Source: Treponemataceae bacterium
GTDB lineage: Bacteria; Spirochaetota; Spirochaetia; Treponematales; Rectinemataceae
Direction of reading: 5' to 3'
Length of the DNA: 64,000 nucleotides
NCBI GenBank assembly: GCA_963677895.2
Contig: CAXXGJ010000012.1
Span: 67,443 to 131,442, forward strand
Position numbers: made by a program. Below, in pieces: positions 15,001 to 24,000 of this stretch (positions are counted from its first letter, which is position 1; the number at the start of each line of letters is the position of its first letter).

Positions 15001-18000
15001 CGTCGCTGGCGTGGAGCGGGAGGGAAAGGGCGTTGCCCATCGAGGCGCGAAGGGCCTTGCGGTAATAGGGGTCGGCGCAGCCCGGACCCAGGAGCACGCC
15101 TGCCGCTCCCAGTCCCGCTGCCGAGCGGATCAGGGCCCCCACGTTCGAGGGATCGGTCACGTTCCAGAGGCAGAGGTATGAGTCCTCAGGCGCCCCTTGA
15201 CGTCGGGGTTCGCCCTCGTTTCCCGCGAAAGGCTTCAATTCTGGCCTTTTCGCTATGGCGATCGATCCATGGTGGAAATGGAAACCGGCGATTCTGCAGA
15301 TTTCCTCGTGATCGACCCGCTTTACGGGAAATTTCACTTCATGCGTCGCGAGCCAGTCCTCGTCGCTCCCCTCCGAACGGACGAGGCCAAGAATCTCAAT
15401 GTCTCCGGCGATCGCCTTCTCGATGACGATGCGTCCCTCGAGGACCATCAGACCCATCCGCGAAACATCCTTGTCCTTGAGGTCCGAAAACAGGCCGAGA
15501 TCGAATTCCATATCGGCAGTATACAGCAGCCCGGCTAAGTTCCGCGATAGCGAAAAGCCGGGACTATCCGTCGCCTGGGCCCAATTCGCCATGAAAAGCA
15601 GTCGCGTCAGCCGAAAAGCGTCTCCATTTCCGCGTGGGCAGCGAAAGCGGCCATCGCGGCGTCGGAAGGTTTGGGCGGATTTTTCGAAGCTTCCTCGACA
15701 ATAGTCCTGAATACGTGGATATCGCCCGCGCTGTTGACGAAGGATCCATCCAGGCCCCAGGCGAAGCCCAGGGCGGCCGCGATGTCGGCGGGCTCTTTCA
15801 GCGGCTCGTACCAAGTGGCGTTTGTATGGGGCCTCTCGCCCCAGGGCTTTCGCAGGAAAGCCTTTATGAGCTGGTAGGCTACCTTTCGCCCGCGGCACTC
15901 GCCTACGAGTTCGCCAACGGCCGACGCGTAGTCCGGATTCCGCGACAAAGGCCAATTCCAAGGGAAAAGCACGGAATCGAAATCGAAACGACGGAGGCTG
16001 CGCAAATGCATGGCCGGGGCGTTCAGGCCATGGCCCGTCACGCCGAGGAAGCGGACCTTGCCGCTTTCCCTGGCTTCCACGAAAGCCTCGAGGGCACCGC
16101 CCTCTCCCATGGCTATCTCCCACTCATCCTCTTCGACGAGGACATGCATCTGCCAGAGATCCACATGGTCGGTGCCCAACCTTGCGAGCGAAGTCTCCAG
16201 CTCGGCGAGGGCTTCCTTTTTCGTGCGCATCTGCGTCTTCGTCGCCAGGAAAACCTCGTCGCGGTGAGATTTGAGCCAGGGTCCCATTCTCTCCTCGGCG
16301 TCGCCGTAGCTCGCCGCCACATCGAAATGGTTGAGGCCAGCCTCAAGCGCCAGGCCGAGCGTCCTGTCGGCTTCGCCCTGTGTGACGGTGCCCAGCGCCG
16401 CCGCGCCGAATATCAGACGGGAGGATTGGTGGCCTGTGCGGCCGAACGCTTGTCGTGGTATCATGGAAGCCTCCTATATCAATCATGGCAGCATGCCGGA
16501 GGGAAATGTGCGCGTTCTCGATTTCGGTTCCCTGAATATAGACTATGTTTATAAGGTAGACAATTTTCTCAAGCCCGGCGAGACAAAACCGGCTCAGTCG
16601 CTCACGGTTTTCGCGGGAGGCAAGGGACTCAACCAGGCTTTGGCGCTCGCGAGGGCGGGGGTCGATGTGGCCCAGGCGGGCAAAGTGGGCGGCGAGGGCG
16701 CCTTCCTCGTCGAAAAACTGAAAGCCGCGGGCGTCGATACGAGCCGCGTCGAGACATCGAACCTCGCGACGGGCCACACGATCATCCAGGTGGACGACGC
16801 GGGAAGAAACTGCATCCTTCTGTTCGGCGGCGCCAACCGCGATATAGATGCCGCCTGCATCGAAAGAGCCCTCGTCGGCTTCGGCAAGGGCGACCTTCTT
16901 CTTCTCCAGAACGAAATAACGTCCATCGCCTCGATTATGAGGGCGGCGAAGGCCCGCGGCATGACCATCGTCATGAATCCTTCGCCCTACGACAGCAACA
17001 TAGCGACCTATCCCCTGGAACTGATCGACATTTTCATGCTGAACGAGATCGAGGTGGTGGACCTGGCGGGCGGTGGCGAACCGGAAGCGGCGGCTTGGGC
17101 GCTCGGCAAGCGCTTCCCCGGGGCCAGGATCGTCGTGACGCTGGGAGCGGAAGGTTCGCTCTGCATAGAAAAGGGCAATCTCATAAGGCAGAAAGCGTAT
17201 AAGGTAAAAGCCGTGGACACGACGGCCGCCGGCGACACCTTTACAGGCTATTTCCTCGCCGGCCTCCTCGAGGGCATGGATACGGGCAAGGCCCTCGACC
17301 TGGGCGCCAGGGCGGCGTCTATCTGCGTCACACGGATGGGCGCCGCCGACTCCGTGCCACTACGCGCCGAGGTGAAGTGAAGTGAGGCGAGGGCGCCGAA
17401 CCGAAACCTAGGCGCGGTGTCTTCTCACTTCTTGCTGTCGAACTTGTCGGATTTTTTATCCACCCACTCGCCGGCCGCCACCGCCGCGTCCTCGATCGTC
17501 TGTATGATGGCTTTCAGGAGCTTCTCGCCGGCTTTTCCCATGCGGTAAAAGCCCTTGGCGGCGTCGTTCTTGCAGATCTTCGCCGCCTGGGCAATGGCGT
17601 TCTTGTACTGCTCGTCGGTCATCTTTTTCACGGCGTCCTTGAGAGGAGCGCCATCCTTCGTGTAACCGAACTTGACCGCATAGTAGGACATGACCATGTC
17701 GGCGATGGCCTCTTCCTCGAAATTCAGCTTGTCTCCCACAATTTTCGCGATATCATGGGCTGGATTCCTCGTCTTGAACCAGAGGAAGTCGCTGAAAGCG
17801 CCGCTCACCGCCAAGGCGAGCAGAAGGATGAGCGAAACCCTCCGCTTGAACCCCGCGGAAAAGAAAATACGCGCCTTCATTCGGATGCCGCCATCTTCTT
17901 CAGCAGCTCGGGCTCGAGCCTGAAGGACGAGCCTCTTCCCTGGCAGAAGTGGTGGACGCGGAGAAGATGAATGGACAGATCGGAAAAGACGAGCATGTCC

Positions 18001-21000: not shown

Positions 21001-24000
21001 GGCCAGAATGGCGGTGATCGGCCCCCAGAGGCCGGGATTCGTGATTTTTACGGCCACGTAGGCGGCGCCGTCGATAGTGGAACTGTAGGCGGCCATGCCC
21101 GGCGCGGGTTCGGGGAGTTCCTTCACCTGGCTCGCGTAGGTGCTTTCCACCTCCGCTTTCGAGGTTGCCGGACCGGCCAGGTCAAAAGCCTTGAGGACGG
21201 CGTAATGGGACGCGTAGCTCTGGTTGGCCTTCACCTGCGGGAGGGTGATCTGGTTCGCCGCGGCGAGGAGGACGACGAAGGCCGAACAGACGACGAAGGT
21301 GAATACGATGACATAGCCGATGGATTCTTTCTTGAACTTCATGCGGCGCTCCCCTTTTTCTCCGCGACGGCCGGCTTTTTCATCGAATCGACGGCGATGT
21401 CGATGAGGCTCGCGAAGGTATTGCCGAAGAGGATGGCAAAACTCGTGCCTTCCGGGAAGGCGGAGAAGGTGCGGACGACAACGACGGTGATGCCGATCAG
21501 TGCGCCGTAGACGTAATGGGAAGGCTGGCGCTTGGGCGCAGAGATGGGATCGGTGGCCATGAAAACGGTGACGAAGAGGAAGGAGCCGGCGAGAAGGCTC
21601 TCCATGGGGAGGGCCTGATGGACGCCGCCGTAATAGAGAGCCGCGTTGAGGGCGGCGGCGGCGGCGATCGAAGATAGGATGATGCGCCAGCTGGCCGTCT
21701 TGGTGGCGATGAGGTAGATCGCCGCCGCGCCCACGAGGAGCGCCATTCCCTCGCCCATGGCCCCCGGGCGTTGGCCGAGCAGGAGGTTCAGGATGTCGAC
21801 GCTTTGGCCTGAGCGCATGAGGCCGAGAGGAGTAGCCGAAGCCACGACATCGGCCGCGCCGAAGCCGAATTCCCCAAACGTGGAATAGGAAGCCGAGAGC
21901 ACGACGGCGAAGGATATATACACGAAGGTTCGTCCCGCTATCGCCGGATTGAAGATATTCTTGCCGAAGCCGCCGTAGACGCTCTTGGCGAGGGCTGTGG
22001 CAAAGACGATGCCTACGCCTAGAATCCAGAGCGGCGTCCTGGGCGGAAAGGCTAGGGCATAGAGGGCGCAGGTGATCAGGATGGCTTCGCTTACTTTTCC
22101 CGATTTTTTCCGCTCGAAGACCCACTCGGTGCCGATGCCCAGGATAAAGACCACGGCCGCCGAAAGAAGGACTTTATAGCCATACATCCAAATAGAGTAG
22201 AGGTAGATCGGCACGAGAGCGTACAGGACTCTGCGCATCATCGGCTGTTTCAGGAACTTCACCATGGCTGAGCTCCTCCTTTACGTAGAGTAGTATAGGC
22301 AATCGCCATTTGCAATTTGTAAATCGACCGTAATTTCGATTAATCGACGCGGATTTTCATCTCCGAGCCTAGGGCGGAAGGTTTTTCCGCTTGACCCCCA
22401 AACCGTTAGCGGCAAGAATCCCATGGGGAGAGAAAGCATGGAAACCATTCTGTCATTCGATGAGGACGCAAGTCTGGACGGGCTGCGAATAGGACTCGTG
22501 GAAGCGAGAGGCATTCGCTGGGCCGCGACGCCGGCCGGCGGGCAATTCCTTGCCGCCATCGCGGAAGCGAAAACGAGAGGGGAGGCCCTCATTACCCCCA
22601 CCCGCAAATCCGCCGTGCGCGCCATGCTTCGTTACGGCGCCTACAAACCCGCCGGCCGCGGCAAGCCATCGAGCGAGTATCTCCTCCAGGCAGCCCTCGA
22701 CGACGACTTCCCCGCGGTCAACCCCTTCGTCGACGCGGCCAACATCGTCAGCCTTCTTTCGGGCTATCCCATCAGCATCCTGGACCTGGACAAGTCCGGT
22801 TTCCGCCTCCTCCTGCGAAGGGGAAGGACAGGCGAGAACTACGTCTTCAATGCCGGCGGCCAGACCATCGAACTCGCCGACCTCCTCTGCGTCTGCAGGC
22901 AGGAGGGCGAAGGCTTCTTCCCTACCGCCAACCCGGTCAGGGATTCCATGGCCACGAAAATCTTCCCCGGCGCCCAAGCCGTCGCCGCCGTACTATACGC
23001 GCCCGCCGGAGCCGAAGGCCGGGACCTCGAATCGGCCTGCGCGAAACTCGCGGCCTATCTCGGGGAATCGGCCGAAAGCGCGGAATGGAGCGTAGTGGAA
23101 GCCGAACGCTAGACCTTCGGGGCTTTCCTCGATACCATTCGCCCCAATGGAAATGATGGATTCGAGCGACGAAAACCTCAGGAGGGCGGGAGCGGCCATA
23201 GCGGCGGGCAAGCTTGTCGTTATCCCCACCGAGACCGTCTACGGCCTTGGCGCCGACGCCTTCAACCCGGACGCCGTCGCGCGGGTTTTCGAAGCCAAGA
23301 GACGCCCCGCCTTCGATCCGCTCATCATCCATATATCCAAACTCGACGATATCGAACGCATCGCGACCTCCTTTCCGCCCAAGGCCCGGCTTCTGGCCGA
23401 AGCGCTCTGGCCCGGCCCCCTCACCATGATTTTACCCAAACGCCCCGAGGTACCCGATATCGTCACTTCCGGCCTGGACACGGCGGCCGTGCGCTTCCCG
23501 GTCCATCCCGTCGCGCGGAAAATCATCGAATATTCCGGCACCGTGGTGGCGGCGCCCAGCGCCAATCCCTTCGGTTACATATCGCCCACGACCGCGCAGC
23601 ACGTGGCCAAAACCCTCGGCGATCGCGTGGATTTCATTGTTGATGGAGGACCTTGCGCCGTGGGCGTCGAATCGACCGTCATCGACATGACCCGCGATAT
23701 CCCGGCCGTACTGCGGCCCGGCGGCATGCCTCTGGAGCGAATCCGCGACATCATCGGCGAAGTGCTGATTCCCGGAAAGAAAGGCGGACCCATAGCCAGT
23801 CCTGGCCAGCTAAAGAGCCATTACGCGCCTCACGCGACCCTCTACCTGCACCCGTGGAATTCCCTGCCCTACGCGCTTCGACAGACCTCGCCCGACGCCG
23901 TCGCGGCCGATCCGTCCGCCGCACCTGAGGTGGCCCTCAGCGCCGCTCCCATGGCCGCCATCGTCTTCGACGCGTCCCGCGCCTCCATCCTGGCGGAATC

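Follow-up and report, generated by a model that had tools for sequence, protein, structure and literature searches.

A putative NQR-type membrane complex without NqrA includes a conserved sixth protein predicted to bind NqrF

A six-gene operon in the genome of a Treponemataceae bacterium, an anaerobic spirochaete, is best explained as encoding a complete NQR-type membrane redox complex, here called NQR-X, which is made up of NqrB, C, D, E and F together with a sixth subunit, X, and never includes NqrA. Our preferred reading, which we hold tentatively, is that NQR-X oxidises NAD(P)H independently of quinone, probably with ion coupling, and that its F-X module supplies oxygen-stress enzymes of the rubredoxin type.

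The operon occupies positions 17877-22265 on the minus strand of the window, that is, the whole stretch of 64,000 nucleotides that was analysed. Its six genes are tightly packed in the order nqrB-C-D-E-F-X, adjacent genes overlapping by 4 nt or being separated by 1-12 nt. They encode an NqrB/RnfD-type membrane subunit of 308 aa (21339-22265; PF03116, E 9.5e-74), an NqrC/RnfG-type subunit of 209 aa (20713-21342; PF04205, E 8.9e-13), NqrD- and NqrE-type membrane subunits of 206 and 199 aa (20096-20716 and 19495-20094; both PF02508), an NqrF-type subunit of 372 aa with Fer2, FAD_binding_6 and NAD_binding_1 domains (18366-19484), which is the sole nqrF-type gene of the genome, and X, a soluble protein of 158 aa from an unnamed family (17877-18353). 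Every Nqr assignment is backed by Pfam and NCBIfam, with all five matches below the NCBI equivalog cut-offs. The only match of the nqrA model TIGR01936 in the genome is the organism's own RnfC (E 0.04), which confirms the six-gene operon without NqrA described in the first-pass annotation.

A seventh reading frame of 151 aa (17425-17880, minus strand) overlaps the stop codon of X by 4 nt and is possibly co-transcribed with the operon. It has a hydrophobic N-terminus, matches no Pfam or NCBIfam family and appears to be lineage-specific: 9 of the 13 close relatives examined have a homologue behind X, and tblastn finds nothing beside X in 30 loci with short flanks or in 20 wider spirochaete loci. 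The operon is otherwise bordered by a B3/4-domain gene, Sua5 and a ribokinase. The lack of any oxygen-stress gene next to it in the window speaks against our preferred reading. The genome (92.8% complete, 5.5% contaminated) does hold a rubrerythrin-desulfoferrodoxin-rubredoxin cluster and, as previously noted, one ApbE gene and a complete RNF operon elsewhere, on contig C6, with the genes rnfC-D-(G by position)-E-A-B.

The order B-C-D-E-F-X without nqrA recurs in all 13 close relatives, within the reach of their contigs, and in 18 of the 20 wider spirochaete loci, the two exceptions being a locus that ends at a contig edge and one that consists of X alone. NqrA is absent from the 140 flanking ORFs of these 20 loci, as it is from the 123 flanking ORFs of 27 metagenome loci. 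In phylogenetic analysis, 23 NQR-X operons form one clade (SH-aLRT 100) on the NQR side of RNF and apart from canonical NQR, while RNF forms a separate clade with support of 100. The tree thus supports the view, already put forward on first reading, of a distinct lineage of the RNF/NQR family without NqrA, rather than a recent loss of that subunit. The nqrA-less layout is not confined to Spirochaetota: among the homologues of X are proteins labelled as belonging to Thermosipho, candidate division KSB1 and Planctomycetota.

Every cofactor-holding residue along the semicircular electron path is kept, with 51 to 77 sequences examined per site. NqrF has an N-terminal membrane helix followed by a 2Fe-2S ferredoxin domain, an FAD domain and an NAD-binding domain (TIGR01941, 277.7 bits against a cut-off of 295), and its four cluster cysteines, C69, C75, C78 and C110, are present in 77/77 sequences. 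The cluster cysteines of NqrD (C27 and C110) and NqrE (C30 and C118) are kept in 58/58 and 65/65 sequences, respectively; NqrD scores 233.4 bits with NF006777 (cut-off 235), and NqrE scores almost equally with the nqrE model TIGR01940 (207.8 bits) and with rnfA (204.3 bits), both under cut-off. NqrC combines an N-terminal membrane helix with an FMN_bind domain, whose flavinylation motif DAITGAS ends in Ser185, with Ser or Thr at this site in 56/56 sequences; TIGR01938 (nqrC) gives 83.9 bits and rnfG 65.2 bits, again both under cut-off. The NqrB-like subunit retains the FMN-attachment residue Thr145 and the acidic residues E47, D239 and D289, as do all 51 sequences of the same type, and lacks the N-terminal arm of about 100 residues found in Vibrio NqrB. 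Indeed, as had been proposed, it matches the NqrB model only from position 115 (115-393 of 406), and its residues 36-292 align to V. cholerae NqrB 133-400 with 131 bits, compared to 95-102 bits for RnfD chains, whereas the RnfD model is matched over its whole length (12-318 of 327); both model matches are under cut-off.

NQR-X shares features with both NQR and RNF. V. cholerae NqrABCDEF (PDB 7XK3, 8A1U) has the same five homologous subunits in the order B-C-D-E-F, the same domain arrangement in NqrF, the FMN-attachment sites of B and C and the cluster cysteines of D and E, and NQR-X groups on its side of the tree. NQR-X differs in having no NqrA, a shortened B, subunits below the equivalog cut-offs, the additional subunit X and host genomes that mostly lack menaquinone markers. 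With RNF (RnfCDGEAB; PDB 7ZC6, 9ERK, 8AHX) it has in common the D/G/E/A membrane core, a B subunit of RnfD length and occurrence in quinone-free anaerobes, but the operon contains neither RnfC nor RnfB, NqrF holding the input position; NQR-X is separate from RNF in the tree, and its host has an RNF operon of its own. The Fer2-FAD-NAD architecture of NqrF also occurs in the oxygenase reductases BenC, MmoC and AntC, whose models score 141-169 bits. Nevertheless, these matches are far below cut-off, NqrF, with its membrane helix, is part of an nqr operon, and no oxygenase family is matched among the 263 scanned flanking ORFs.

The gene layout itself is known. Clusters of nqrBCDEF without nqrA, which we liken to NQR-X by their described gene order, have been reported in Pseudothermotoga thermarum and P. 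lettingae (PMC4148951, 2014), Clostridium ultunense (PMC5924567, 2018) and 'Ca. Izimaplasma' ZiA1 (PMC6256511, 2018). The idea of a non-quinone acceptor was already published with such clusters (PMC4148951, PMC5924567), in one case with the suggestion of an acceptor more negative in potential than quinone (PMC5924567). As far as their passages on these clusters go, the three papers describe five genes and no sixth protein, in contrast to NQR-X. The novelty first claimed for a quinone-independent NQR relative is therefore not upheld, and the additions made here concern X.

The family to which X belongs is large, with 311 representative clusters at E<=1e-3, and has neither a Pfam model nor a recognisable fold; X homologues exist in Thermosipho. 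Neither X nor 78 members of its family match Pfam or NCBIfam. The AF2 model of X has a pLDDT of 95.8, and structural searches return no Foldseek match at E<=1e-3 and a best VIA Z of 2.4, in agreement with its initial description as a conserved partner of unfamiliar fold. We see no classical redox-cofactor motif in X, only one mostly conserved Cys and two His. Across phyla, X and NqrF-type genes are inseparable. The gene immediately preceding X is of the nqrF type in 79/80 metagenome loci, the sequence of the remaining locus extending a mere 14-17 nt upstream of X, and in 29/30 spirochaete loci. By tblastn, X is not found beside 10 canonical spirochaete NQR operons, nor beside 7 operons whose NqrA-like gene is divergent, one of these being covered only as far as NqrB.

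Complex prediction pairs X with NqrF and not with NqrB. With NqrF residues 35-372, three runs give ipSAE values of 0.68, 0.70 and 0.68 (best control, 0.01), with at least 92% of contacts in common and a partner pLDDT of at least 86. The mark applied is passed by 116 of 157 solved complexes and 2 of 215 mismatched pairs, counts that are approximate here, where our own alignments were used. As no relative of X is found in the PDB, the passing score does not reflect recall of a solved complex. The predicted interface covers NqrF residues 245-246, 275-281, 305-306, 319-321 and 344-351, which include the GGSG and CGSPGM nucleotide motifs, and takes in the cluster loop 68-77. X is thus predicted to form a stable heterodimer with the cytoplasmic part of NqrF over the 2Fe-2S loop and the FAD/NAD cleft, probably clamping onto the NADH-oxidising subunit.

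The genomic surroundings of X suggest where the electrons may go. Soluble F-X pairs end operons for rubrerythrin, peroxiredoxin and desulfoferrodoxin; in two such loci, L107 and L110, the order is rubrerythrin, peroxiredoxin, ODP di-iron protein, rubrerythrin-like protein, soluble F and X, L107 additionally containing desulfoferrodoxin and ferritin. The soluble F proteins form one clade (support 96) nested within membrane-type F (99), showing that X was retained beside NqrF after the loss of B-E. This result, along with the predicted partner, places X with NqrF and not with an NqrA/NqrB site. Among the 27 metagenome B-C-D-E-F-X loci, rubredoxin immediately follows X in 5 and precedes B in 1, glucose-6-phosphate dehydrogenase (G6PD) follows rubredoxin in 5, rubrerythrin-like genes occur in 10 and ferritin in 5; any listed oxygen-stress gene is near 13/27, an association that is biased and built on non-independent rows, since the set was seeded with X from a stress operon and holds the near-duplicates L115 and L121. 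Rubrerythrin, desulfoferrodoxin, hemerythrin or nitroreductase genes lie beside 5/19 spirochaete operon loci and oxidative pentose-phosphate genes beside 2/19; related genomes, here as in the other counts, are non-independent samples. In both sets oxygen-stress neighbours are limited to a part of the loci, which weighs against our preferred reading. Lipoate and 2-oxoacid dehydrogenase genes turn up beside the spirochaete operons with similar frequency (5/19), and point to NADH supply only. Rare fusions join X to rubredoxin, rubrerythrin, nitroreductase or a peroxiredoxin fragment; each of their clusters comprises just 1-3 members, from short contigs, and errors of gene calling may account for them.

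The comparative data agree with quinone independence, as first suggested: the menaquinone markers MqnA/D or MenA occur in 3/52 genomes with X compared to 20/27 with true NqrA (neither marker in 49/52 and 7/27, respectively), and no genome is common to both groups. The window's genome, which is only 92.8% complete, has no MqnA/D, MenA or cytochrome bd. The statement that it holds no recognisable menaquinone pathway stands for these markers, but not entirely, as a cluster encodes an MqnP-like UbiA prenyltransferase (257 bits, above the TIGR01475 cut-off of 180.8), UbiX and a UbiD-like protein whose gene is apparently frame-broken, split over three reading frames. The N-terminal NqrB arm missing here is part of the quinone and inhibitor pocket. 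Quinone might nonetheless still be the acceptor, at a site in the NqrB core for which NqrA is dispensable, being scavenged or made by an unrecognised route, with X unrelated to acceptor choice. Such a reading would draw on the greater similarity of B to NqrB than to RnfD, on the prenyltransferase cluster, on the three X genomes with a marker and on a 2025 review which, in its passage on these subunits, places ubiquinone in NqrB and gives NqrA neither cofactor nor assigned function (PMC12174285). Given the shortened B, the 49 genomes without either marker and the apparently broken UbiD-like gene, we judge it improbable.

Electrons could instead leave at the NqrC FMN for secreted flavinylated reductases, making the complex a one-way conduit from NADH to the periplasm without pumping. 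The NqrC FMN site is conserved, the genome has an ApbE gene, and one-way partial NQR/RNF-like systems have been proposed, as far as the relevant passage of that source goes (PMC8238504). Yet the NqrB FMN threonine and three acidic residues, kept in 51/51 sequences, would be superfluous in a conduit that stops at NqrC, the 263 flanking ORFs contain no FMN_bind domain or secreted reductase (E<=1e-4 and E<=1e-6), and the recurring neighbours are cytoplasmic oxygen-stress proteins. This route, which the first-pass annotation had put forward, finds no pointer in the neighbourhoods, and we give it slightly less credence than the quinone reading. A third reading, unlikely but less so than these two, is that X acts on NqrF as a regulator, gate or protective cap, shaping or plugging the NAD(P)H cleft and shielding the 2Fe-2S cluster, for example from oxygen, with the acceptor (flavodoxin or ferredoxin, for instance) taken at the NqrB flavins, possibly driven by the gradient as in reverse RNF. 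The predicted interface over the NAD-binding cleft would suit such a regulator no less well than an output adaptor, no cofactor motif is recognisable in X, and the conserved NqrB residues imply that the return path through B is in use. On the other hand, the genome's full RNF already serves the ferredoxin/NAD couple, X stays with soluble F in oxygen-stress operons, where there is neither gradient nor B subunit, and rubredoxin directly follows X in 5/27 loci, with X-rubredoxin fusions among the rare fusions noted above. The earlier interpretation as a whole is partly supported.

In our preferred reading, NQR-X would oxidise NAD(P)H at NqrF and would not reduce quinone; reducing power would pass to rubredoxin-type carriers and on to rubrerythrin, desulfoferrodoxin, peroxiredoxin or di-iron oxygen-stress enzymes. 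X would serve as the output or docking piece. In the membrane form, the RNF-like core would use the drop from NAD(P)H to a higher-potential acceptor to move Na+ or H+. If X and rubredoxin do act at the NqrF cluster, electrons would skip the membrane loop, a point against this reading. Soluble NAD(P)H:rubredoxin oxidoreductases of anaerobes pass electrons from NAD(P)H to rubredoxin and on to rubrerythrin, superoxide reductase or flavodiiron proteins, and are flavoproteins of the pyridine-nucleotide-disulfide type. They would thus be functional analogues of NQR-X, with the same overall reaction as proposed here, but from an unrelated protein family, the reductase of NQR-X being an NqrF-type Fer2-FAD-NAD protein plus X, mostly anchored to an RNF-like core. 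X may link the pump to oxygen-stress defence instead of quinone and, if this is true, the detoxification of oxygen species would conserve energy in a quinone-free fermenter.

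It is established that the minus-strand operon in the window is an intact member of a distinct and widespread NqrA-less lineage of NQR-type complexes, in which a sixth subunit is tied to NqrF. The first of its six genes (21339-22265) encodes an NqrB/RnfD-type protein of 308 aa, and the others encode a 209-aa FMN_bind protein of NqrC/RnfG type (20713-21342), NqrD (20096-20716), NqrE (19495-20094), the 372-aa NqrF (18366-19484), with Fer2, FAD_binding_6 and NAD_binding_1 domains, and a soluble protein of 158 aa, here called X (17877-18353). Both Pfam and NCBIfam support the five Nqr assignments, and X matches no family of either database. 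Because adjacent genes overlap by 4 nt or are separated by only 1-12 nt, we consider them as one transcription unit. Between 17000 and 22700 there are four promoter-like sites, against a mean of 1.4 in shuffled sequence, none of them upstream of nqrB on the nqrB strand, and six terminator-like sites, against 5.5 in shuffled sequence; we claim no operon boundary. A seventh ORF on the same strand (17425-17880), for a 151-aa protein with a hydrophobic N-terminus and no family match, overlaps the stop codon of X by 4 nt. Its homologue follows X in nine of 13 close Rectinemataceae-type loci and was not found by tblastn in 50 spirochaete loci from other families. Two kilobases from the operon, on the plus strand (24272-25816), lies a gene for a diguanylate cyclase that combines a 7TM sensor domain (HisKA_7TM) at its N-terminus with a GGDEF domain. 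GGDEF genes also adjoin the operon in four other spirochaete loci (L057, L061, L064, and L071), probably by coincidence, as these genomes are GGDEF-rich.

None of the five Nqr subunits reaches its NCBIfam equivalog cut-off (B, 193.6 against 414; C, 83.9 against 144; D, 233.4 against 235; E, 207.8 against 247.55; F, 277.7 against 295). NqrB is RnfD-sized and covers the RnfD model from end to end, whereas the NqrB model is covered from position 115 onward. Its alignment to V. cholerae NqrB spans residues 133-400 of the latter, and the N-terminal arm found in the NqrB of Na+-NQR (~410 aa) is missing. The bit score is 131 against NqrB and 95-102 against three solved RnfD chains. NqrF has the architecture observed in Na+-NQR, with a membrane helix, visible as a hydrophobic N-terminus in the translation, and 2Fe-2S, FAD, and NADH domains. 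Its four cysteines are kept in all 77 alignable NQR-X-type sequences. The Ser/Thr residues of NqrB and NqrC and the paired cysteines of NqrD and NqrE, which we take to be the sites of FMN attachment and cluster binding, respectively, are equally constant: T145 of NqrB, mapped via the V. cholerae alignment, is Thr or Ser in 51/51 alignable sequences, S185 of NqrC is Ser or Thr in 56/56, and the cysteines are present in 58/58 (NqrD) and 65/65 (NqrE). Three acidic residues of NqrB aligned to V. cholerae E144, D346, and D397, presumably involved in Na+ transport, are kept in 51/51. As the cofactor ligands are kept in every sequence aligned, the whole electron loop is under selection. The NqrF domains, the FMN-bearing Ser/Thr of B and C, and the paired cysteines of D and E are thus common to Na+-NQR and to this operon. 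In contrast, an RNF operon includes RnfC (FMN, 4Fe-4S) and RnfB (ferredoxin-like), neither of which was found here with Pfam or NCBIfam.

The genome (3.51 Mb in 39 contigs, 92.8% complete, 5.5% contaminated) has nqrF at this locus only and a single ApbE gene. A search with the NqrA model TIGR01936 matched only the genome's own RnfC (E 0.04), and a complete rnfC-D-G-E-A-B operon, with G assigned by position, is found on another contig (C6), apart from the nqr operon. The order B-C-D-E-F-X is held in 13 close relatives, as far as each contig goes. Among 20 wider spirochaete loci, 18 show the complete set of six, one runs off the end of its contig, and one has X alone. By a profile search, 52 of the 401 Spirochaetota genomes sampled hold X, each as a single copy, and NqrF is directly upstream of X in 29 of 30 spirochaete loci. 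True NqrA, scoring above the cut-off, is present in 27 of the same 401 genomes, none of which has X, so the X-linked form is about twice as common in this sample as canonical NQR; X was not found by tblastn beside ten canonical NQR operons. All of this upholds the first-pass annotation, which had described a genome without NqrA but with a full RNF complex, a shortened NqrB, a conserved nqrA-less gene order in relatives, and a mutual exclusion of this type of NqrF and true NqrA. Unlike Na+-NQR (NqrABCDEF), the form that we call NQR-X has no true NqrA, be it in this genome, in the 52 genomes with X, or among 263 ORFs flanking such operons, in which no NqrA or RnfC domain was detected.

A quick tree search on concatenated B, D, and E from 44 operons, all from Spirochaetota, groups the 23 operons with X as a single clade (SH-aLRT 100), on the NQR side of the tree and apart from canonical NQR (100) and RNF (100); RNF is separated from all NQR-side types with a support of 100. 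Genomes of family f19 with NQR-X also hold one or two further NQR-type operons, in which the first gene is NqrA-like but divergent, scoring 90-162 bits with TIGR01936, whose cut-off is 321. These are of two types, one with a full NqrF and the other with a 149-aa NqrF consisting of the membrane helix and the 2Fe-2S domain only, and each type forms its own clade with a support of 100 (loci L094, 4885-8958, L096, and L098, 2640-6727; L095, L097, and L098, 13394-16666). In genus g26, the NqrB of NQR-X is 413-417 aa long (L060, 8606-9859, minus strand; L062, 3244-4485, plus strand), apparently owing to an internal insertion of ~100 residues, with no N-terminal arm. The sole spirochaete locus with X but no nqr genes (L054, X at 1499-1966, genome G059, contig C148) is on an 8.3-kb contig. 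There X is flanked by ~1.5 kb and ~6.3 kb of sequence and adjoins genes for HEAT-repeat and FG-GAP-repeat proteins.

The NqrA-less layout itself is already known. Such nqrBCDEF operons have been in print since 2014, described from Pseudothermotoga in the part cited here without a known acceptor (PMC4148951), one was reported in 2018 from Clostridium ultunense, where an extract of the paper has the authors proposing an acceptor more negative than quinone (PMC5924567), and a passage on 'Ca. Izimaplasma' mentions another (PMC6256511). As far as these published descriptions go, the clusters resemble the present one in gene order nqrB-C-D-E-F, absence of nqrA, and an anaerobic, RNF-bearing host (PMC4148951, PMC5924567). 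In the sections considered here, a large flavinylation survey takes NqrF as the defining feature of NQR and leaves NqrA unmentioned (PMC8238504); X might figure as an unnamed ORF among the NQR gene neighbourhoods of its Supplementary file 1. The literature searched yielded no biochemical study of the layout, and neither X nor a connection of NQR with rubredoxin was found described in it. As far as these searches reach, three things are new: that F has a bound partner of no known fold, that this partner survives in oxygen-stress operons of the soluble kind, and that rubredoxin and glucose-6-phosphate dehydrogenase (G6PD) are found in the neighbourhood.

The X family comprises 311 representative clusters at E<=1e-3 and, with a profile of distant members, 1032 clusters (90% identity) at E<=1e-10. 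Named holders include Rectinema, Treponema, Gracilinema, Sphaerochaeta, Sediminispirochaeta, Thermosipho, candidate division KSB1, and Planctomycetota, and Sphaerochaeta globosa, Gracilinema caldarium, and Thermosipho are cultured carriers of the genes. In two alignments of 78 and 65 rows, G23, F24, G26, D28, R30, D39, G86, P91, K99, L126, H129, H134, F136, G139, G141, R145, and P148 are invariant or at least 90% conserved, and C90 is 90% conserved in the 65-row alignment. Neither X nor 78 members of its family match Pfam or NCBIfam. The searches made found no known family or fold for X: its best profile hit in the PDB is at E 0.22, its AlphaFold model (pLDDT 95.8, pTM 0.90) has no Foldseek match in the PDB at E<=1e-3, and its look-alikes in the ESM Atlas are unnamed clusters only. 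The highest Z from VIA-align against 48,161 chains was 2.4, below the 7-8 usual for models without a match; so weak a match of a predicted structure does not prove a new fold. A distant tie to DUF7919 (PF25535), on which no literature was found, is possible: X and the 78 members stay below its gathering score, one fused relative reaches 23.6 bits, short of the cut-off of 27, and the family occurs in 13% of one look-alike Atlas cluster. A profile search for longer, fused forms of X found none at E<=1e-5, which the tool itself rates as weak evidence.

The association of X with NqrF extends beyond spirochaetes. A metagenome scan seeded with a five-row alignment of distant X proteins gave 80 loci, in 79 of which an NqrF-type gene is directly upstream of X; the 80th has just 14-17 nt upstream of X. 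B-C-D-E-F-X is seen in 32 of these loci and E-F-X, truncated on the upstream side, in 14; in 31 the upstream sequence is too short to tell, and two (L107 and L110) lack B-E despite more than 5.9 kb of it. In these two and in the shorter L112 and L116, NqrF is ~340 aa long and starts beyond the membrane helix. Genes for rubrerythrin, peroxiredoxin, an ODP-type di-iron protein, a rubrerythrin-like protein, soluble F, and X share a strand in L107 and L110, and L107 has desulfoferrodoxin and ferritin as well. In an NqrF tree, the soluble F of all four loci groups as a single clade (96) inside membrane-type F (99), which indicates that the soluble F-X pair is derived. That X was kept after the loss of B-E speaks against two functions, both of which we reject: a stand-in for NqrA or RnfC on NqrB, and an NqrM-like maturation factor for the NqrD/E cluster. 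The NqrM model had no match in the genome, and was silent on control sequences too.

Complex prediction supports binding of X to NqrF. With a 65-row alignment for each chain, three runs on X and residues 35-372 of F gave ipSAE values of 0.68, 0.70, and 0.68, compared to 0.01 for the best control, with at least 92% of contacts common to the runs and a partner pLDDT of at least 86. The ipSAE mark is met by 116 of 157 solved complexes and two of 215 mismatched pairs, counts that hold only roughly here, since our own alignments were used. As X has no solved relative, the prediction is not the recall of a known complex. On F, the predicted interface comprises the 2Fe-2S loop (68-77), a segment of the FAD domain (202-214), and the nucleotide cleft (245-246, 275-281, 305-306, 319-321, and 344-351); on X, it comprises 16-27, 65-73, 80-89, 99-103, 110-122, and 143-144, ranges that contain or adjoin several of the conserved residues.

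Neighbouring genes were counted in 27 distinct B-C-D-E-F-X metagenome loci (two ORFs upstream and three downstream, 123 ORFs), a set that is biased by its seed and includes near-duplicates, related genomes in all such counts not being independent. Rubredoxin directly follows X in five loci (L115, L121, L143, L145, and L171) and precedes B in one. A rubrerythrin-like gene adjoins ten, ferritin five, and a di-iron ODP and a peroxiredoxin one each. An oxygen-stress gene of any kind stands beside 13 of the 27. G6PD comes after rubredoxin in four loci and, in L139, after a small unassigned ORF sitting where rubredoxin would be. Of the 19 operon loci from spirochaetes, five adjoin a gene for rubrerythrin, desulfoferrodoxin, hemerythrin, or nitroreductase, and two adjoin oxidative pentose-phosphate genes. 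The window's own operon has no oxygen-stress neighbour; a rubrerythrin-desulfoferrodoxin-rubredoxin cluster is found elsewhere in the genome (contig C25). Rare fusions join X to rubredoxin, rubrerythrin, nitroreductase, or a peroxiredoxin fragment, and as they come from clusters of one to three members, we take them only as hints of adjacency. Genes for lipoyl synthase, lipoate-protein ligase, or 2-oxoacid dehydrogenase E1 adjoin five of the 19 spirochaete loci (L055, L059, L060, L064, and L066), which may link the operon to NADH-producing enzymes. Pyruvate dehydrogenase E1 follows X in two metagenome loci (L180 and L183).

As the best mechanistic reading, we tentatively propose that NAD(P)H may be oxidised at NqrF-X, that the electrons would end on rubredoxin-type carriers serving rubrerythrin, superoxide reductase, and related enzymes, and that the RNF-like core would move ions, paid for by the potential drop. 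An alternative, which we consider unlikely, is that X is a gate or regulator of NqrF; its predicted position over the NAD cleft fits this role equally well. Continued use of quinone and export of electrons to periplasmic flavoproteins are both less likely. For the latter, which appears very improbable, no FMN_bind domain was found among the 123 metagenome flanking ORFs.

Use of quinone by NQR-X, quite improbable in our view, is not contradicted by the absence of NqrA alone, since a 2025 review, in the part cited here, gives NqrA no cofactor and no assigned function and locates ubiquinone in NqrB (PMC12174285). The first-pass annotation, which proposed an acceptor other than quinone, had also stated that there is no recognisable menaquinone pathway, and this stands in part. 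Cytochrome bd, MqnA/D, and MenA were searched for in the genome and none was found, but its one UbiA-family gene is MqnP-like (257 bits with TIGR01475, cut-off 180.8), and UbiX and a UbiD-like (mena_SCO4490-like) gene flank it (locus L104, 1472-4452, contig C25:52471-55451). The UbiD-like gene is apparently split over three reading frames, and could be a pseudogene or an assembly error of the bin. MqnA/D (PF02621) occurs in 130 of 401 Spirochaetota genomes and MenA in 14, at E<=1e-40, a threshold stricter than the curated cut-off. Either marker is present in 20 of the 27 genomes with true NqrA, and in only three of the 52 with X (G108, G287, and G223). This rarity fits a non-quinone acceptor, and the overall way of life of these fermenters shows in it too.

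A bolder form of the rubredoxin proposal, which we regard as possible though rather doubtful, is that the RNF/NQR pump family has a third working type in NQR-X, which would translocate ions as an NAD(P)H:rubredoxin (oxygen-stress) oxidoreductase, and in which X, with a new fold, would be the electron-output or docking module on NqrF. Quinone- and cytochrome-free anaerobes would then gain ion-motive force while reducing O2, superoxide, and peroxide via rubrerythrin-type enzymes, and the soluble F-X pairs would be uncoupled descendants. The results on X, namely that it goes with NqrF, has no known fold, and survives in soluble form in oxygen-stress operons near rubredoxin and G6PD, turn an annotation puzzle into specific and cheap experiments. 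If the pump reading is true, it would revise the view of energy conservation and oxygen tolerance in fermentative anaerobes, and would add a new subunit and a new class of acceptor to a pump family whose structure has been intensively studied.
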